A stretch of DNA of 64,000 nucleotides from Candidatus Cloacimonadales bacterium. Lineage in GTDB: Bacteria; Cloacimonadota; Cloacimonadia; Cloacimonadales; DAONDQ01. Positions 6,545 to 52,632 of the stretch are shown here, one piece after another. A program made the translations under genes and the position numbers. The notes below the pieces were generated by a model, which ran no database searches, was not told the DNA's origin, and saw nothing but the letters and a program-made list of their open reading frames with translations. The first letter of the stretch is position 1; every line of letters starts with the position of its first letter. The DNA lies in assembly GCA_963662275.1 (NCBI GenBank), contig OY759316.1, positions 3,904,001-3,968,000 on the forward strand, written 5' to 3'.

Positions 6545-8405
6545 GAGACTGTTCATGAAGTTATTCATAATATTCAATAAGTTAGAAAGTAGCAAGTTGA
6601 AAAAAGTGGTCGAAACGGTCATAATTTAACATACCTTCCAGAATTGACAGATAAGCTCTGCTAAGGACACCAAATCACAAGTTAAGCTTTTTGACTAAAA
6701 TTGAAAAACACGCGATTATAAGTAATGTTTCGAAGCCGTTTCTGACTAAATGTGTAGTTAAAATCATATAAAATAGTTCTTTACAAGTTTTTTGCTATAG
6801 CTTCAATGGCATTTGTTACCTGGTAACAAAAGGGAGGATATTATGACAAAAAAACACTCCAATTCAAGAAGCGGTAAGTGTTAGTCATGAAAGTAACCAA
6901 TACCATGTAAGTATTAACGTACCATTTTCATTCACTTTGCCTGAGACAACATCAAACCACAAGTTCTTAATAGCGTTTCTACGCTTATTAGTAGGAATAG
7001 GCGGAGACAACCTCCTTACACTTCAGCAAATAGCTGATCTGTTTAACTACGCAGACCGCAGGAATGTACATAATTTCTGGCAAGAGTTTGAGCAGCATGG
7101 TCATGATATCCTGGCATATTTAAGCCGGAAAGTTGACCTGCTGGAGTGTATTCCTCAGATCGAGAATTTTGTTATCAATAACCTGCTTTTACCTTTAAAT
7201 GTCATGTATCAGGAGTTCATCAGCCATCATGATTTTAAAATGTCCTATACCACTTTCTGCAAATATGCTTCTCAGGTCAATTCTCTGTCTGTAGTTAAGC
7301 AAGCTCAGAAGCTTCTTCTGAAAAAGACAGTAGGCGGTGATGCTGTACATCTGCTGAAACTGCTTGCCGGTCAGCAGAATACACCTGTTATCTGTGACAG
7401 ACTCCTGGAACAAATGAAGACTGCTAAAGGCAATACATCCCATAGAACCGCCGATGCAAAGCCGTTCCATAGTCTGGAACGCAAGAACCTGTGTCTGCTG
7501 GTACATTACCTGGTTGGAAGCGGTATGAACTTCGAGACGATAGCTTTGCTGCTCAACACCTGTAAAGCTACAGTCTCAAATCTCTGGCATGAAATCGCTG
7601 ACCTGCAGAGCCTGATTCTGAACTCAATCGGTAAGTGGAGCGGAAAGATCAGCATTGATGAGAAATATGTGAAGATCAAAGGTATTCCGTACTATGTCAT
7701 CAGTATTGTTGATTTTGTGACTCACATCCCTCTGTTTTGTGAGTTGTATCCTGACACAAAGAAAGAATCATTCGAAGCATGTTTCAGAACCTTCAGACAG
7801 CTCTACAGGAAAGATCCAACCCTGATTGTCAGTGATGGCAGTAAATCGTTAGCAGTTGCAAGAAAAACAGTGTTTCCAAAAGTCCATTACCAACTCTGTA
7901 AGTTCCATAAGATACGAAATCTCTTCAAAAGAATCAGTCAATGTCATCTCCCTGAAGACAGGGACAAGTTCTTTAAGAAGAGGATTATGAAAGCTTTCCG
8001 AAGAGAAACGGCGGGCGGAAGGAAAAAGGGTATCGCAAGCCTGACAGCTATTACTCCCCCAACCGCCGCCGAATACATCAAAAGCAATATCATTAGTGAT
8101 TGGAGACACCTCAGCAAAGGTTTGACTTCCAATGTCTCTGAACGCTGGAACCGCAAAATCAAGAAGGTGACATCCGGTAGATTTGGACTAAAATCTGAAG
8201 AAACCACCCGCAACCTTGTGTTTTCGCTTTGGTTCAAAGAACTGGTCGATAAAGGTCAACCAATCATGCGTCAGGAATCACTTTTAGCAAGTTTAAATAT
8301 CTCCCGCATATGTCAAGAAAATGTGGATTGGTCGCACTTAGACCACTTTTTCTCTGTCACTACCAATAAGGCTGCGTAAAATGGAGGTTAATTTTGAACA
8401 GTCTC
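6545..8405 (+). mobile_element. Insertion sequence (DDE, IS256/Mutator- or IS6-related), 1861 bp
   Basis: 11-bp TIR GAGACTGTTCA/TGAACAGTCTC; 8-bp TSD ATCATCAG at 6537-6544 and 8406-8413. Confidence 0.9.
6937..8379 (+). CDS. DDE transposase (true start may be ATG 6843, out of frame by one A)
   Basis: SIDEKYVKIKG, LIVSDG, YQLCKFH (CxxH), TSNVSERWN. Confidence 0.85.
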   Translation: MPETTSNHKFLIAFLRLLVGIGGDNLLTLQQIADLFNYADRRNVHNFWQEFEQHGHDILAYLSRKVDLLECIPQIENFVINNLLLPLNVMYQEFISHHDFKMSYTTFCKYASQVNSLSVVKQAQKLLLKKTVGGDAVHLLKLLAGQQNTPVICDRLLEQMKTAKGNTSHRTADAKPFHSLERKNLCLLVHYLVGSGMNFETIALLLNTCKATVSNLWHEIADLQSLILNSIGKWSGKISIDEKYVKIKGIPYYVISIVDFVTHIPLFCELYPDTKKESFEACFRTFRQLYRKDPTLIVSDGSKSLAVARKTVFPKVHYQLCKFHKIRNLFKRISQCHLPEDRDKFFKKRIMKAFRRETAGGRKKGIASLTAITPPTAAEYIKSNIISDWRHLSKGLTSNVSERWNRKIKKVTSGRFGLKSEETTRNLVFSLWFKELVDKGQPIMRQESLLASLNISRICQENVDWSHLDHFFSVTTNKAA

Positions 8406-8503: not shown

Positions 8504-9352
8504 ATGACAAATATAGACAATTACAAAGAGATTATCTTTGAAAGCCTGAAACAAACTAATGAATTTGGGTCTGACTTCTGGTTTGCCCGTGACTTAGCAA
8601 ACGCCTTGGATTATTCACAATGGCGAAATTTCCTGAATGTCGTGGATAAAGCAAAGGAAGCATGTGAACACAGTCATAATCATGTACCTGACCATTTTGC
8701 TGATGTCAGCAAAATGGTACAACTTGGTTCTGGTTCTTTAAGAGAAATAGACGATCTTATGCTGTCCCGTTATGCTTGCTATCTTATTGTTCAAAATGCC
8801 GATCCAAGCAAGGAAATTGTCGCATTGGGTCAGACATATTTTGCATTAAAAACCCGTGAACGTGAGATTGATGAAGAGTTCAAGCAATTGTCGGAAAATA
8901 AAAAGCGAGTTGCGATTCGTCATGAACTCAGGGAGCATAACAAACAATTGGCAGATGCTGCCAGGAATGCAGGAATTGAAGATTCAATAGATTATGCAGT
9001 TTTTCAAAATCATGGTTATATGGGCTTGTATGGCGGGTTAACAGCAAAAGATATTCACCAAAAGAAAGGTTTGAAGAAAACGCAGAAAATACTTGATTAC
9101 ATGGGAAGTACAGAACTTGCAGCTAACCTTTTCAGAGCAACTCAGACAGAAGACAAACTGAATCGGGAACAGATCAAAGGGAAAGAAAAAGCAAATGAAG
9201 TACATTTTCAGGTTGGAAAGAAAGTTAGACAAACAATTCAAGAATTAGGCGGAACAATGCCTGAAGAGTTGCCAACTCCTGAAAAATCAGTCAACCAAAT
9301 TGATTCTGAAAGTAAAAAAATAGATCAGAAGAATAAAAAAAGAAAAACTTAA
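8504..9352 (+). CDS. dinD: DNA damage-inducible protein D (Bro-N family)
   Basis: WFARDL, LSRYACYLIVQNADPSK, FQNHGYMGLYGG, MGSTELAANLFRATQ, GGTMPEELPTP. Confidence 0.9.
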   Translation: MTNIDNYKEIIFESLKQTNEFGSDFWFARDLANALDYSQWRNFLNVVDKAKEACEHSHNHVPDHFADVSKMVQLGSGSLREIDDLMLSRYACYLIVQNADPSKEIVALGQTYFALKTREREIDEEFKQLSENKKRVAIRHELREHNKQLADAARNAGIEDSIDYAVFQNHGYMGLYGGLTAKDIHQKKGLKKTQKILDYMGSTELAANLFRATQTEDKLNREQIKGKEKANEVHFQVGKKVRQTIQELGGTMPEELPTPEKSVNQIDSESKKIDQKNKKRKT

Positions 9353-11909: not shown

Positions 11910-12043
11910 GTACCTATTTGAATCCAATTTGATACCAGTTTCAATCCTGTTTCATACCAGTCTCATACCAGTTTCATACCTGTTTCGTTAAACAGGAAAG
12001 AGATTAGTATGCACTTGGTATGAACGTGGATTGAACTGGGTAT
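11910..12043. repeat. Inverted array of 11-bp units
   Basis: 7 ATACCAGTTTC-like units, 2-nt centre, 5 GAAACTGGTAT-like units. Confidence 0.8.
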
Positions 12044-12079
12044 CAATAATGCGGGTTATAGTCGCCAAGTTGGTTATTT

Positions 12080-46122: not shown

Positions 46123-46683
46123 TCAAGGTTCCATATTTAAATTGCTTTGCGGTTGATTTTTTTGCAACGCGAAAGATAAATTGGTATAGAGCTCTTTATA
46201 GGTAGTGCTCAGGAGAGGCGTTCGAAAGACAATACCTTTCGGTCTCATGAGTAATTTCGGATAGAAGAAGAACTTGCGCAGAAAACTGATATGTTCAAAC
46301 AATTGGGGATCATACTCAAAAATCAGGACTGGATACTTTTTATATTTCACCCTTCTTGTTCGTATCTCGGACACATAATTCCAGGGAATCTGAAAGCTGA
46401 CAAAAGCAGTTGGCTGATAATAAACTCCCAGGTTATTAATGATAATCGCCGGTTCTTTTTGAAACAAAAGACAGGTAAAGTCAATGATACTGAGTCCGCA
46501 ATAATAAGCAAGACCCCAGGCAAACACATGAATAAACAACCAATGTTTGTTATTCTGATAGACCAACTGCCGCATGAAAAAAAAGTGGATGATATAGGAA
46601 AGTAAAACGATAAAGATTACCAGGAATAAGAAGATTTTAACTTTACTGAAATTAACTTCAATGCCAGGTTCAACCACATTCAT
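46123..46683 (-). CDS. Membrane protein (two TMs plus soluble tail)
   Basis: Hydrophobic segments, PAIIINNLG...IPW; GGGAG RBS. Confidence 0.65.
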   Translation of the reverse strand: MNVVEPGIEVNFSKVKIFLFLVIFIVLLSYIIHFFFMRQLVYQNNKHWLFIHVFAWGLAYYCGLSIIDFTCLLFQKEPAIIINNLGVYYQPTAFVSFQIPWNYVSEIRTRRVKYKKYPVLIFEYDPQLFEHISFLRKFFFYPKLLMRPKGIVFRTPLLSTTYKELYTNLSFALQKNQPQSNLNMEP

Positions 46684-47060
46684 AGGAATCTCCCTTTTGG
46701 AATTACTTTTAAATGAATATAGTTTATGCTATAGTTGTTGTTGTCAATAAAAAGAACCAAAGTAAATGCAGAAAAGATTACCAATCCATATTACGAATAA
46801 TGTACTTAAAGACTAAAACTTCAACCAAATCTTATAACCGAAATAGAAGTCACCAGCATTGAATTTAGCAGAGCTTTGGGGCGTTGTTAATTCCATAGGT
46901 ATATGAGGATCTATCAGATTTCCACCATTCAGATTGTATCATTGTGATGCATAAGTGTTAGATCGTTGAAGAAGGGATTAGGAGAGAGTGCCTTCGGACT
47001 TATCAGCGATATTAAACCGCATAGAAGCCTCGTTATAGATAATAAGGTAAAAGCAAGTTC

Positions 47061-47139
47061 ATACCAATCTTAATCCTATTTCATTCCAATGTTGCGAAAC
47101 AGGAATGAAACTGGTATGAAATTGGATTGAAACTGGTAG
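47061..47139. repeat. Inverted array of 11-bp units (same family as 11910-12043)
   Basis: 3 forward units, GC centre, then GAAACAGGAAT/GAAACTGGTAT/GAAATTGGATT/GAAACTGGTAG. Confidence 0.75.
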
Positions 47140-47146
47140 TAATAAT

Positions 47147-47616
47147 GGTGTTCGTTTTGAGTTCTCAAGAACACTAATATGCTCAAATATGCAGTTCGGA
47201 TTGAGATGCAGTTCGGAGAACGGAATTCTGCTAGCCCAGGAAGTTCTTCCAGTGGAACGAGACCAGAATAAATCCTCTGAGTCCGTAGGACGAAACCACG
47301 AATGAAGTTCAAAATCGGAATAATGGGAGAATGTGTCTTCTTCCAGACTCTTTCATACAAATGTAAGGTAATATCTTTGTTATGTCGCAAACCCAGGAAG
47401 GACTTACTGGGCTAACGGAATGACATCCTACGGATTAATTCAGGCAAAGAAAGCGCCCATGGTAATACGGCCTCCTATTCATATTCCGGTTTTGAACTTC
47501 CCTGAAAACGGGTTTTCACTACCGTGGAATGAATGATCGGAATGAAGTCCAATTTCCCTGTTAGCTAAGTGGTAATAGATAGTTTAACATGGGAAATTGA
47601 ACTCCAAATCCTCAAT
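47147..47616 (+). ncRNA. Candidate large structured RNA (unassigned)
   Basis: Several long complementary segments; most non-WC pairs are G-U on the + strand; no credible ORF. Confidence 0.45.
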
Positions 47617-47629
47617 AATCACCGATGAA

Positions 47630-47832
47630 GAATCCGACAATACCATTGTCAGTTACAAACCTCCGTAACATAAAGTGGTACTTTGTTGTATGAGGGGATT
47701 GGCAATCCCCGATGCAAGATGAATTCGACAATACCATTGTCTCATACAACAGTTTACCAAACTATGCTACGCTCCAGAATCCGACAATACCATTGTCTCA
47801 TACAACAGTTTACCAAACTATGTTACGCTCCC
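47630..47832. repeat. Double-hairpin REP-like cluster
   Basis: 56-bp tandem pair 47721-47776/47777-47832, partial copy at 47630, inverted variant at 47664-47710. Confidence 0.85.
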
Positions 47833-47845
47833 GCATTCTCAAAAA

Positions 47846-48943
47846 TCAAGGGGAAACCCTGACGCAGCGAAAGCCTATATGGCAGGTGCTGGTAGCCGCA
47901 TCGCCGTAGTTCCGAGCGGAAACGACGCAGTAGCTGGCACTGTCGCCCCAGCCACCGCCGCGGTGCACGCGGGCAGACCCGCTGACGACGCCATGAGGAT
48001 TGTTCTGCGCTCCACTCGGATAATCACCATAAATGTCCCAATTCCACTCCCAGACGTTACCGCTCATGTCAAATATGCCAAGTTCATTAGCTGTATTGGT
48101 GCCAACTGTATGAGTTGTGCTACCTGAGTTGGAATAGTACCAAGCAACAGCATTTATATCTTCACTACCACTGTAGGTATAACCGTGAGTTGAGTTACCA
48201 CCCCGGGCAGCAAATTCCCATTCCGCTTCGGTTGGGAGGCGATAACCGTTGGCTGTCCAAGAGCAGGTGACATTTGTGTGGTTGTTATAATCGGAATTCC
48301 AACCTGAAGGCCAGGTGGCCGGGTTAGTACCATAAGTAAGATAACTGTAACACGGTGTAAGACCTTCGCTGATGCTCCGCTTGTTACAATACTCGATGGC
48401 ATTGAACCAGGATACTTGCTCCACGGGTCCATTCGTTACACTAGAATAATAAGATGGATTTGTTCCCATCACAGCCTGATATGCAGCTTGCGTAAGCTCA
48501 TATTTATCTAAATAATAACTACTAACCGTCACATTAGAGGTGCCATTGTTGAATGTGCCACCTGCAACAAGTACGAAGTTAGCCGGAACAGATATGCTAT
48601 CCCAAGCCTGTACTTTGAAAGCAAACTGGTTGCCGTCCAATGGTGTTGCTTCATTTCCGGCATGCCAGACGATGTGCTTGCCGGTACCAATGTGTATCTT
48701 GCCAGTATCTCCACTGAGGTTGGCAGGTGTGACAGTGACCGTAAAAGTAATTCCGGCGTCATTAGACACGCTCATACTGACCCATACGCTGTCGGTGCTC
48801 GAGCAGGCTACATCATAATATATATCCAGTATTTTACTGCCATCGGTGCGCTGGGCAGCAGTGGCATTCGTTACAACAGGAGAGACAGCATAAATCGTAG
48901 CTGAAAGAATGATTACGAGAAATAGCAGAGATATTTTTCTCAT
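47846..48943 (-). CDS. Secreted FGE-sulfatase (SUMF1/CLec-fold) protein, putative DGR target
   Basis: Signal peptide, YRLPTEAEWEFAARGG, DMSGNVWEW, RGGGW...GFR; abrupt GC-rich 3' end. Confidence 0.9.
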   Translation of the reverse strand: MRKISLLFLVIILSATIYAVSPVVTNATAAQRTDGSKILDIYYDVACSSTDSVWVSMSVSNDAGITFTVTVTPANLSGDTGKIHIGTGKHIVWHAGNEATPLDGNQFAFKVQAWDSISVPANFVLVAGGTFNNGTSNVTVSSYYLDKYELTQAAYQAVMGTNPSYYSSVTNGPVEQVSWFNAIEYCNKRSISEGLTPCYSYLTYGTNPATWPSGWNSDYNNHTNVTCSWTANGYRLPTEAEWEFAARGGNSTHGYTYSGSEDINAVAWYYSNSGSTTHTVGTNTANELGIFDMSGNVWEWNWDIYGDYPSGAQNNPHGVVSGSARVHRGGGWGDSASYCVVSARNYGDAATSTCHIGFRCVRVSP

Positions 48944-49231: not shown

Positions 49232-50437
49232 TTATTCAGCCAACCGACGTTTAATATCCAGCCAGCTAACCGGCACAGTTTTGACTTCGAAATCAGAACC
49301 AGCTTTTGTAGCTTTGCTTTTCAACCGGGCTACAAGATTAGCAGTTCTTTCATCATAATACTTCACTGCCACCACACGATAATACATATGTGTAGCATGT
49401 CTGACAACGTTATGATGCGTACAACCGCTTGCAGTTTCCACTTCTTCCAGGAAATAATAAGCTGCTTCATTCTCCGCATCCGGAGATTGATTATAGAGAA
49501 TGAGGTAAGCAGATGGAACTATTGGAGTACCAAGAACAGTTAGGGTTACCTCATCCCAGGTAATCACGGCATCCCGATTATTGACTATCTCTACATTGAC
49601 GTTTTGTGGTGCTGCCGGTGGCACATAACCGATACTGAATGGGTTCTGAGATATATCGCTGCCTGAATTGCCAAAGGCATCCTTTACGGTCAACCTGACT
49701 AATGTTTGTTCAGAAGTAATGCTGGGCATCAGCCAACTATAAGAGCCGTTATTGGCAAGCTCCGGCTGGATAGAAATCCAAGTGCCGGTGCTGACCTTTT
49801 TGTATTCCAGCTTGATGGGCAAAGCTGCGATGTGGCTGTCTGATGCACACCAAAGGACATCATGAGTTTCTCCAATATACCAGCTTTCACCGCCATTGGG
49901 AGACTGCAAGTCAACCGTGGGATTTACAGTATCGACCGTAGTAAGTGGTGTAAGCATAACGGATGCTCCTGCCAGCGTGAATGCTGCATCGCTTTCGTCA
50001 TTGCTAATGTTGCCAAAGCTATCGATGGCAATAATCCTGATTTTAGCCTGTAGCACAGAGGTGGTCGGCACCGTCCAGAGATAGCTGCCGCTGTTGGTCT
50101 GATCAGCAGCCAGATTGGTATAGTTGGTACCATTATCGGCACTAAACGCAATCGTTATAGGATTTGCTATAAAATGATTATCTGTTGCACTCCATAGGAT
50201 AGCTTTTTGCTGATTGGAATAGAGCGTTTCTCCGCCATTGGGAGAAATGACCGAGAGAAGAGGGTTGACCGTATCTACTGAAACCAGTGACGTTATTGCT
50301 TCTCCCATAGAAGCATAACGGTTCGGTGGCATAAAACCGCTGCTAGTTCCTGAGTCAATTGTAATCGACACGGCTGTCAGGCTGAAACTGCATCCTAATA
50401 TTAGGAAAATGAAAAAGAGACTCCTTATCCAGCGCAT
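49232..50437 (-). CDS. Secreted protein with two SPNGGE Ig-like repeats and an FN3-like C-terminus
   Basis: Signal peptide; duplicated VDTVNP...SPNGGE...W.A.D.H...N.GSY.W...D.FGN modules. Confidence 0.75.
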   Translation of the reverse strand: MRWIRSLFFIFLILGCSFSLTAVSITIDSGTSSGFMPPNRYASMGEAITSLVSVDTVNPLLSVISPNGGETLYSNQQKAILWSATDNHFIANPITIAFSADNGTNYTNLAADQTNSGSYLWTVPTTSVLQAKIRIIAIDSFGNISNDESDAAFTLAGASVMLTPLTTVDTVNPTVDLQSPNGGESWYIGETHDVLWCASDSHIAALPIKLEYKKVSTGTWISIQPELANNGSYSWLMPSITSEQTLVRLTVKDAFGNSGSDISQNPFSIGYVPPAAPQNVNVEIVNNRDAVITWDEVTLTVLGTPIVPSAYLILYNQSPDAENEAAYYFLEEVETASGCTHHNVVRHATHMYYRVVAVKYYDERTANLVARLKSKATKAGSDFEVKTVPVSWLDIKRRLAE

Positions 50438-50739: not shown

Positions 50740-52632
50740 GGAGATGTCCCGAAACTAGCATGATTTTATTTTCTTCTGTTGTAAAATATGTGATTGTTTT
50801 TACAGGCAAACTAAATTACTCAATAGTTTCCGAAAAGCGATGCAAAGACAAGGAAAAACGGAGTAATATTTACCTAATTCATGTTTGAATTCTGGTAGGA
50901 AGAGTCTTCATCAGGCTTTTCCTTCAGTATTTTGTAAGTGCAGAAACATTTTCCCTATATTATGTCCTAAAAAGAGGAGGGATAACTGTTCCTTGCATTT
51001 TCTCAATGAACGGACAGTAAATCTCTCAAACTTCCTGTTCCACTTCATGAAAGCAAATACAGCCTCCGGTTCGATGCCTCTTTGCTTTCTCAGCTTGTCG
51101 CCTTTTTCAGAAAGCAGATTATTGACGGTCTGACGTTTTAGTGGAGCTATATGAGGATCGTAGGTCAGTGATTTATGTGTTTTATCCTTGTAGGGAATAC
51201 ACTTTTTATTGTGAGGACATTCTCTGCAGTCATTACATATATAGGTTTTCACGATTCGTTTCGGACCGTTCTTCTCTGTCTCTTCTTCCTTGATTTTGAC
51301 CAGTCTCCGATTAAATTGACAGACCCACTCATCATGCTCCTCATCATAGCTGAAGCCTGTCAGAAGAGAGTCCCGATAATCTCTCTTATAATCCTGGGTC
51401 TTGAGATAGCTTGTTATCTCTTTTTCAGCAGCATAATTCAAATTCAGCGCAGTGCCATAGGCAGCATCTCCAACAACGTCGGTAGGATATTGTCCCAATT
51501 CATCATGCATTTGCTCCATGAGATTGGGAAATTCAACGGTTTCTTTAGGGATATTGAATAAGTGAATGCCTGTGACAAATTGCTCTGAAGTTCCGATACT
51601 GGCAACATAACCCGGTGCCAGCTGTCCATTTTTCAATCGCATAAATGTGGCATCATTATCAGTCTTGGATGTGCTGCTGCGTCCTTCTCCAATTATCTCA
51701 AGCTGTTGCTCATATTTCTCCAGCTTAGTTATATCATTGCTCTTTGATTTGGAGATTTCGCGCAAAAGAGATTTGATTTTCTTGATAGCCCGAGTATCTG
51801 ACGGATGATTTTTCTGTAGTCGGGACATTGCTTCTTTCAGCTTGTTTTCTGCTGAGACCAGTCTATCTCTGATCTGTTCAGATGCGACTGTAGCAGTTTT
51901 CTCTGATTCAACCGCATGCAATTGCTCACCAAGCTCAAGAAGATCAGCGGTTCCATATTGCTGTTGCTCTTCCTGATTATATTCCTCGATCTTTTTAAAC
52001 AATCCCTCAACTCGTGTCTTGACCAGTTCCTGATAACGAAGCGCATTGCTTTTCCAGATGTAGGAATTCTTGCCGGCATTTGCGTGAATCGTCGTCCCGT
52101 CAACAAAACAGGTGTCGAGATCAAGATATCCTAATGATGATGCTTTCAGTACTACCTGATAAAATACATCAATAAGAATATCAGAACACTTAGTCCAGGC
52201 AAAGGTGTTGATCGTTCTGAAATCAGGTTCCTGTTCTCCTGCCAGCCAGATAAAATTGATGTTCTCCCGAACAGCCTTAGCTATCTTCCGACAGGTATAA
52301 ATACCATTGATATAGGCGTATACAATGATCTTCAACATCATCTTGGGATGATAAGCAGGTGTACCTTCATCAGAGTATCTTGTATATAGCTCAGATAAGT
52401 CCAGTTGCTCAACGACATCGTTAACATAACGAACCATGTGCTGGGGAGGTATTCTCTCTTCAATATTAAGTCCATAGAGTGTCCCCTGATTCGGATTGTG
52501 CTCTCTGAAATTCATAATTCTCTCTATGCTTAGTTTTTAAAGGCAACAATACACCCTATAACAATATGTCAAGTAATATGATTAATATTTAATAGTTGCT
52601 ATTTTTCTATCATTTAGTTTCGGGACATCTCC
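50740..52632 (-). mobile_element. IS1182-family insertion sequence
   Basis: Perfect 18-bp TIR GGAGATGTCCCGAAACTA (50740-50757 / 52615-52632); at most a 2-bp TC duplication. Confidence 0.88.
50911..52515 (-). CDS. IS1182-family transposase
   Basis: YHPKMMLK, PDFRTI, FVDGT, SKTDNDATFMR, GDAAYG, C..CP...C, EAVF. Confidence 0.92.
   Translation of the reverse strand: MNFREHNPNQGTLYGLNIEERIPPQHMVRYVNDVVEQLDLSELYTRYSDEGTPAYHPKMMLKIIVYAYINGIYTCRKIAKAVRENINFIWLAGEQEPDFRTINTFAWTKCSDILIDVFYQVVLKASSLGYLDLDTCFVDGTTIHANAGKNSYIWKSNALRYQELVKTRVEGLFKKIEEYNQEEQQQYGTADLLELGEQLHAVESEKTATVASEQIRDRLVSAENKLKEAMSRLQKNHPSDTRAIKKIKSLLREISKSKSNDITKLEKYEQQLEIIGEGRSSTSKTDNDATFMRLKNGQLAPGYVASIGTSEQFVTGIHLFNIPKETVEFPNLMEQMHDELGQYPTDVVGDAAYGTALNLNYAAEKEITSYLKTQDYKRDYRDSLLTGFSYDEEHDEWVCQFNRRLVKIKEEETEKNGPKRIVKTYICNDCRECPHNKKCIPYKDKTHKSLTYDPHIAPLKRQTVNNLLSEKGDKLRKQRGIEPEAVFAFMKWNRKFERFTVRSLRKCKEQLSLLFLGHNIGKMFLHLQNTEGKA

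Follow-up and report, generated by a model that had tools for sequence, protein, structure and literature searches.

Evidence for a recently written, probably orphaned DGR variable region in a TvpA-like gene of a Cloacimonadota-like genome

The 3' part of a gene on the minus strand of the 64,000-nt stretch of DNA analysed here (the window, 64 kb) is almost certainly a variable region (VR) written by a diversity-generating retroelement (DGR), and we think it probable that this DGR-written VR is now orphaned in its source genome. In DGRs, the RNA of a template repeat (TR) is copied by an error-prone reverse transcriptase (RT), which inserts wrong bases opposite adenines; the 3' end of a target gene is then exchanged for the resulting cDNA. 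A TR of the type conserved in Cloacimonadota, located in a cassette with the order target-HRDC-Avd-RT-TR, would have served as the template. On the ligand-binding face of a secreted, TvpA-like protein of the C-type-lectin/FGE fold, 14 out of 15 AAY codons would have been rewritten. The copy would have been written fairly recently and then orphaned, and it is probably no longer serviced in the source genome.

RESULTS

A GC-rich gene tail

The first-pass annotation of the window had read the last 147 nt of the gene (47846..47992) as a DGR variable region diversified in trans, on account of its unusual composition. In the coding sense (minus strand), this segment consists of 50 G, 48 C, 31 T and 18 A, which corresponds to 67% GC in the gene tail versus 39.2% in the whole window. 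A recount without the stop codon returned the hand counts of the annotation (97/144 GC and 17/144 A), as well as its 30 codons ending in C and one ending in A, ATA being the sole A-ending sense codon; the fixed residues R-G-G-x-W, R and G-F-R were present as described. Among all 147-nt sliding windows (n = 63,854; mean GC 0.392, sd 0.057), the maximum of 0.667 starts exactly at 47846, all seven windows at this maximum start within 47846-47873, and a GC content of at least 0.60 is found only at 47820-48072. The GC anomaly at the 3' end of the gene is real and unique in the window.

Adenine-specific differences from template repeats of relatives

A 36-nt pattern was derived from the VR by writing N wherever variability was suspected. 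Scanned against genome contigs, it matched 69 sites, distributed over 64 loci and 46 assemblies, most of which are Cloacimonadota MAGs. This set does not include the source genome of the window, and all TRs used for comparison come from other genomes. Sixteen of the 69 sites (15 distinct sequences) were true TRs, encoding GSNRVKRGGSWNNNANNCTVSNRNNNNATNSNNNIGFR, and the other 53 were VR-type. The TR conserved across Cloacimonadota encodes GSNRVKRGGSWNNNANNCTVSNRNNNNATNSNNNIGFRCV, and TRs adjoined HRDC-Avd-RT cassettes wherever the flank allowed the check. The template predicted in the first-pass annotation exists: its 36-mer CGCGGCGGTAGCTGGAACAACAATGCCAACAACTGC (taking the annotation's R as G) is found without a mismatch in 20 of the 64 loci, always at TR sites. 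The annotation had also tied its reading to the existence of a TR and an RT in the genome or in relatives, and relatives carry both. A DGR variable region could thus be recognised from composition alone, together with a template that is found letter for letter in other genomes.

The VR proper (47859..47983, minus strand; codons 321-362) comprises 125 nt homologous to the Cloacimonadota TR, from AGCGGGTCT to TGCGTCAG. Compared with the best TR, that of locus L024, it carries mismatches at 24 of the 41 TR adenines and at 4 of the 84 non-A positions (Fisher p 4.7e-11), so that with this reference it agrees with the TR at 80/84 non-A positions; the TRs of L001 and L017 gave 24 A and 5 non-A mismatches. 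Twenty-four bases of the window VR are absent from all 15 TRs, and 22 of these stand at positions with A in 15/15 TRs (binomial p 3e-9). The differences had been expected at adenines, and the comparison with real TRs displays exactly such an adenine-specific pattern, which marks 47859..47983 as a DGR variable region. The nine cognate VR/TR pairs available from relatives differ at 16-22 A and 0-6 non-A positions; since the counts for the window resemble these, its VR looks like a normal, fully diversified one. Two of the 84 non-A positions carry changes unique to the window, one of them non-synonymous (Val where 85 of 88 relatives have T, A, P or S).

Compared with three orthologues, third codon positions have an identity of 0.73-0.87 in the VR part versus 0.38-0.44 in the gene body. 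Third positions are kept only in the VR, from which it follows that this segment was copied from a conserved TR far later than the genes diverged. The C-termini of the protein family were compared as well, using 88 unique sequences drawn from the 93 of 120 listed proteins that match the motif. They contain 17 hypervariable columns, occupied by N, Y, S, D, G and F, where K, E, Q, M or W fill 36 of 1496 cells (2.4%) versus 14.4% in the rest of the proteins. This scarcity fits NNC/NNT codons derived from AAC/AAT.

The target protein and its upstream neighbour

The complete gene (47846..48943, minus strand) is an ORF of 365 aa, in which a signal-like N-terminus is followed by a conserved N-terminal domain without a Pfam match and by an FGE-sulfatase/C-type-lectin-fold domain at residues 123-362 (PF03781, E 1.9e-40). 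By inspection, the N-terminus looks like a signal peptide, and no lipobox was seen in the protein. Its best match in the PDB is Treponema denticola variable protein 1 (TvpA; 2Y3C, E 7.1e-42, query residues 133-360), and the alignment extends through the C-terminal VR. Together with the distribution of the differences between adenines and other positions of the TR, this match bears out the claim of a DGR variable region in a TvpA-like protein. No curated enzyme identity could be assigned, as all NCBIfam enzyme and PorK/GldK models scored far under their cut-offs (GldK 84.8 versus 350; EgtB 43.5 versus 360). On the available sequence evidence, the gene would best be annotated as encoding a putative variable surface or secreted ligand-binding protein and not a sulfatase-maturing enzyme.

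Homologues of the target protein are very numerous (7946 with E ≤0.001 among 8000 scored), and the named ones belong mostly to Cloacimonadota. Among the matches listed in the protein collection, the nearest are 74-77% identical. The 90% cluster of the window protein has this protein as its one member, so that no variant alleles are on record; the organism may be rarely sampled.

The gene directly upstream (49232..50437, minus strand) encodes a protein of 401 aa with a signal-like N-terminus, internal repeats and weak Ig-like matches, among them a sub-threshold match to Big_7. Its homologue in L023 occupies the same place, immediately before the DGR target (L023 7701-8477 versus window 49322-49933, tblastn E 5.6e-49). 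Judged by this homology, the two genes form a unit that is conserved in relatives, and the Ig-like protein is a possible partner for the variable protein.

Cassettes and remote targets in relatives

In L023, the target gene with its VR is followed by HRDC (E 6.6e-16), bAvd (3e-16) and RVT_1 (1.2e-26), and the TR extends from the RT stop codon onward. The same order is found in L017, whose Avd passes the NCBIfam DGR Avd model NF033474 (100 bits versus a cut-off of 80). The target proteins of such cassettes (e.g. in L017, L023 and L041) are 54-67% identical to the window protein over the full length. At eight VR sites the cassette and TR lie about 2.03-2.14 kb downstream, and at two further sites the cassette is interrupted by the contig end. 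A further 22 VR-type sites have no adjacent cassette even though 3 kb or more of sequence is available downstream, so copies of the VR without a cassette seem common in the clade.

One MAG, JALOBT01, contains a single TR (in L041) and four VRs on four contigs (L041, L004, L031 and L045). The three remote VRs differ from this TR at 18-22 A and 0 non-A positions, and the cassette-adjacent VR has 2 non-A mismatches. As the TR matches three VRs on other contigs, remote targeting in trans occurs in the Cloacimonadota clade. In another MAG, JAAYJN01, two VRs without the T-rich box and hairpin flank described below show 9 and 11 non-A mismatches to the TR of their own genome. Alleles of a further relative were available from its 90% cluster (11 full-length; 15 listed, 29 in the cluster): none of the first 480 columns varies, as opposed to 23 of the last 50. 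The confinement of variation to the last 50 columns indicates ongoing diversification in the population of that relative.

Several observations on these loci stand apart. L024 (10036-10718; identical to L025) holds a dead cassette, in which the distance between VR and TR is only 682 nt, an HRDC fragment is joined to the last ~55 RT codons, Avd is missing and the TR is kept; its VR has 6 non-A mismatches to the adjacent TR. Cassettes of the Cloacimonadota type, with the conserved flank, are also found in L003, L006 and L039, short contigs whose MAGs carry the labels Anaerolineaceae, Gammaproteobacteria and Oscillospiraceae; mis-binning is the probable cause, with transfer as the alternative. 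The RT cluster P0169 includes a protein of Candidatus Cloacimonas acidaminovorans (2,246,820-bp contig), and the cultured-model genome of the phylum seems to carry the DGR type of these cassettes.

Search for a cassette in the window and on the source contig

No RT, Avd or TR had been noticed in the window during the first-pass annotation, and our searches agreed with this. Its 51 ORFs of at least 90 aa gave no match to RVT_1, bAvd or HRDC, and in tblastn searches with the HRDC, Avd and RT proteins of L023 no match in the window had an E value below 1. When both strands were scanned without gaps, tolerating changes at adenines, six VR sub-windows recovered only the VR itself, the best non-self match having 31-38 true identities per 100 nt, and blastn with the TR of a relative, which allows gaps, found no TR in the window either.

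For the source contig (4,378,784 bp), the RT of L017, itself a non-representative member of cluster P0123, was used as a query. The search listed 120 representatives, of which the 58 with at least 64% identity make up the clade. None of the 120 listed representatives lies on the source contig, a result that applies to cluster representatives only. In 20 multi-member RT clusters that were opened, 217 of 311 members were listed, and none of these is on the source contig either. In-clade RT sequences outside this coverage number 124, with 94 in the opened clusters and 30 in 18 others. The 67 Avd representatives, again cluster representatives only, likewise include none from the source contig. The look-up would miss a frameshifted or unannotated RT, as well as one encoded on another replicon or more divergent than the top 120.

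Two paralogues of the window protein, P0011 and P0019 (71% and 63% identical), lie outside the window on a contig of 4,378,784 bp, the length of the source contig. A comparison of paralogue 3' ends for adenine-specific differences had been proposed in the annotation; the two tails contain scaffold replacements (W to F, A to P or L, C to S) that adenine changes could not produce. These tails have the look of VRs that are older and further decayed and that belong to another TR subtype (GFRVC...), and one of the two proteins has lost the usual stop and is 8 residues longer than the window protein.

A conserved boundary and a replaced flank

Homology to relatives stops at 47840, six bases past the stop codon, and blastn aligned 21 nt (47840-47860) to L023 without a mismatch. 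This end of the homology coincides with a VR-specific 3' boundary of 19 nt (47840..47858, minus strand), GGTTTCCCCTTGATTTTTG, which includes the stop codon (47846-47848), is common to the VRs of relatives and is absent from TRs. The only inverted repeat located directly at the boundary of the window VR is GGG-TTT-CCC.

In relatives, the VR is followed by a strongly conserved flank of ~130 nt, composed of TGATTTTTG, a T-rich box TTTTTGCCTTTTGCAA and a GC hairpin GCAGGGGGA-loop-TCCCCCTGC. The hairpin is near-invariant, lies ~95 nt after the end of the TR homology and often has a T run behind it. We observed this flank in loci L002-L062 (e.g. L017:11790-11950, minus strand; 19 relatives aligned), and it is kept by cassette-adjacent VRs as well as by the three verified remote VRs of JALOBT01. 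The median number of non-A mismatches is 1.5 for VRs with the hairpin versus 4 for those without it, a rough comparison, as the hairpin pattern missed L004, L012, L028 and L033. The alignment yielded no covariation support for the hairpin, which is almost invariant in it. The distal flank may serve as a terminator or in target recognition.

In the window, the T-rich box and GC hairpin of relatives are absent from 47600-47839, and a local palindromic repeat is found instead. This window-specific block (47629..47832) consists of two tandem 56-nt units at 47721-47831 (56-nt period, 2.0 copies, 96% match), an inverted partial copy at 47629-47694 and a central GGGGATTG/CAATCCCC hairpin. It is predicted to fold into one long imperfect hairpin (-75.4 kcal/mol versus -60.8 ± 4.1 for shuffled sequences, z -3.5). 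The core of the block occurs three times, always within it; it is found nowhere else in the window and in none of the 64 loci. The remaining non-coding sequence (46684..47628) is part of a ~1.1-kb gap at the place where relatives carry HRDC-Avd-RT-TR. In this gap, tblastn and blastn with the L023 cassette detected no cassette remnant, and there is no similarity to the 64 loci. Rfam gave no gathering-score match in the 64 kb; at E ≤1, one chance-level miRNA model was reported in 46600-48000.

DISCUSSION

Present state of the variable region

The orphaned state of the VR is suggested by the lack of a cassette in the 64 kb, by an incomplete look-up that found none on the source contig, and by the replacement of the conserved 3' flank. 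The behaviour of the flank in relatives adds to this, as verified remote VRs keep it and the flank-less VRs of JAAYJN01 are those with 9 and 11 non-A mismatches, and so do the two non-A changes unique to the window and the paralogue tails that have changed beyond adenine mutagenesis. Counting against orphaning, the VR is almost undecayed, its ORF is intact and the 19-nt boundary is kept, all of which fits an active remote target equally well; the distal flank, moreover, could simply be the terminator of the target gene.

We judge it rather less likely that a Cloacimonadota-type HRDC-Avd-RT-TR elsewhere in the same cell still rewrites the VR in trans. Such a cassette would lie more than ~16 kb away on one side, more than ~47 kb away on the other, or on another replicon. 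JALOBT01 offers a precedent, its one TR agreeing at every non-A position with three VRs on different contigs, the 22 VR-type sites without an adjacent cassette are in line with it, and the part of the survey PMC5758913 available to us gives 73 non-adjacent targets for 45 of 372 DGRs, including non-phage ones such as that of Treponema. The good preservation of the VR, its ORF and its boundary would also be expected of a serviced target. These points are set against a source contig on which the incomplete look-up saw no clade-type RT or Avd, a window in which the T-rich box and GC hairpin of verified remote VRs have been replaced, the two window-unique substitutions at non-A positions and the single-member 90% protein cluster with its lack of recorded variant alleles. 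Of the original annotation, the reading as a DGR VR with the predicted TR holds, but the evidence leans against present-day diversification in trans.

A more specific form of continued rewriting in trans would have the local 56-nt repeat hairpin, which begins a few bases past the stop codon, act as a substitute cruciform for target recognition. We regard this as improbable. If it were true, DGR target sites could be rebuilt from unrelated palindromic DNA, and the servicing cassette would be located far away or on a mobile element of the 4.38 Mb genome.

That the segment is unrelated to DGRs, being either the conserved C-terminus of an FGE/SUMF1-family enzyme with GC-rich codons or a horizontally acquired GC-rich segment, is very improbable and seems already refuted as far as sequence can refute it: RGGSW...GFR motifs are indeed general in FGE-family proteins (Pfam and NCBIfam matches), and the out-of-clade pattern matches L014, L022, L043 and L048 have the motif with 19-27 non-A mismatches and no DGR pattern, but the differences of the window VR from 15 real TRs sit at adenines, synonymous positions are conserved in the VR part only, the variable columns of the family avoid K/E/Q/M/W, and the best-matching solved structure belongs to a DGR variable protein and not to an enzyme, while enzyme models remain far under their cut-offs.

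Relation to known DGRs

The closest known counterpart of the probably orphaned VR is found in T. denticola. Its TvpA DGR, like the window, has a target of the FGE-type C-type lectin with a C-terminal VR (2Y3C), and, like the cassettes of the clade, it has an HRDC accessory gene and multiple remote targets. In the accessible portions of the literature (PMC4891356, PMC5758913), T. denticola is described as having an HRDC-type DGR with TvpA-family FGE-fold targets, up to seven of them remote, and the second of these papers, in the text available, names this arrangement 'Architecture C'. According to the same excerpts (PMC4891356, PMC5758913), some T. denticola isolates have target genes with RT and TR absent, and one VR matches a TR type foreign to its own genome, with 21 changes of which 19 are at adenines; its authors read it as a leftover. 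As far as these excerpts go, the target-only isolates and the leftover VR represent the same situation as the VR in the window. The two systems differ in gene order, since Cloacimonadota have target-HRDC-Avd-RT-TR with bAvd and with the TR after the RT, whereas the T. denticola HRDC gene, from the portions consulted, stands between TR and RT. The window target also belongs to a different phylum than TvpA, is only 365 aa long, differs in its N-terminal domain and, on inspection, has no lipobox.

The Cloacimonadota cassettes share with the window the TR match at 80/84 non-A positions and the upstream partner gene; the window is without cassette, TR and conserved 3' flank. The Mtd DGR of Bordetella phage BPP-1, the prototype of these elements, resembles it in the adenine-specific transfer from TR to VR into a C-terminal C-type-lectin surface and in a VR-specific boundary that ends the homology. 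Unlike BPP-1, the window element is cellular and not phage-borne, its target has the FGE-subtype fold, and an HRDC accessory gene occurs in the clade. According to the available part of PMC3240598, efficient homing in BPP-1 depends on a 24-bp inverted repeat directly downstream of the VR, which tolerates changes in the sequence of its stem. By that account, the BPP-1 repeat abuts the VR, whereas the strong GC hairpin of the relatives stands ~95 nt further down, and the window lacks it.

In our literature search, no paper was found that pairs 'Cloacimonas' and 'DGR' as whole words, and Cloacimonetes/Cloacimonadota were mentioned with DGRs only in passing. DGR RTs of Cloacimonadota are noted as a cluster in the accessible text of one survey (PMC11661182). 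A large metagenome survey states, in the part available, that its own method is blind to remote targets (PMC8144416); copies like the window VR are probably under-counted for this reason. The present case adds one cassette-less TvpA-type VR, in a Cloacimonadota-like genome, and leaves the understanding of how DGRs work unchanged.

Repeats and mobile elements around the target gene

The intergenic sequence downstream of the repeat block contains a further repeat at 47023-47139, with an 11-nt unit, GAAACTGGAAT, present in 3.7 copies at 47096-47136; the repeat recurs, inverted, in another intergenic gap at 11911-12060 with 72-88% identity. Just upstream of the two-gene unit lies an IS element (50740-52632) with perfect 18-nt terminal inverted repeats and a transposase gene of the DDE type at 50911-52515 (DDE_Tnp_1_6 plus DUF772). 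A duplicated unit with 28-nt hairpin repeats (50641, 50707, 52797 and 52863) has copies on either side of this element. A CRISPR reading of these 28-nt repeats, which are spaced at 66 nt, was rejected, as they are parts of the larger duplicated unit flanking the IS. A second transposase gene, of the MULE/Mutator family (6937-8379), adjoins a gene with a Bro-N domain at 8504-9352.
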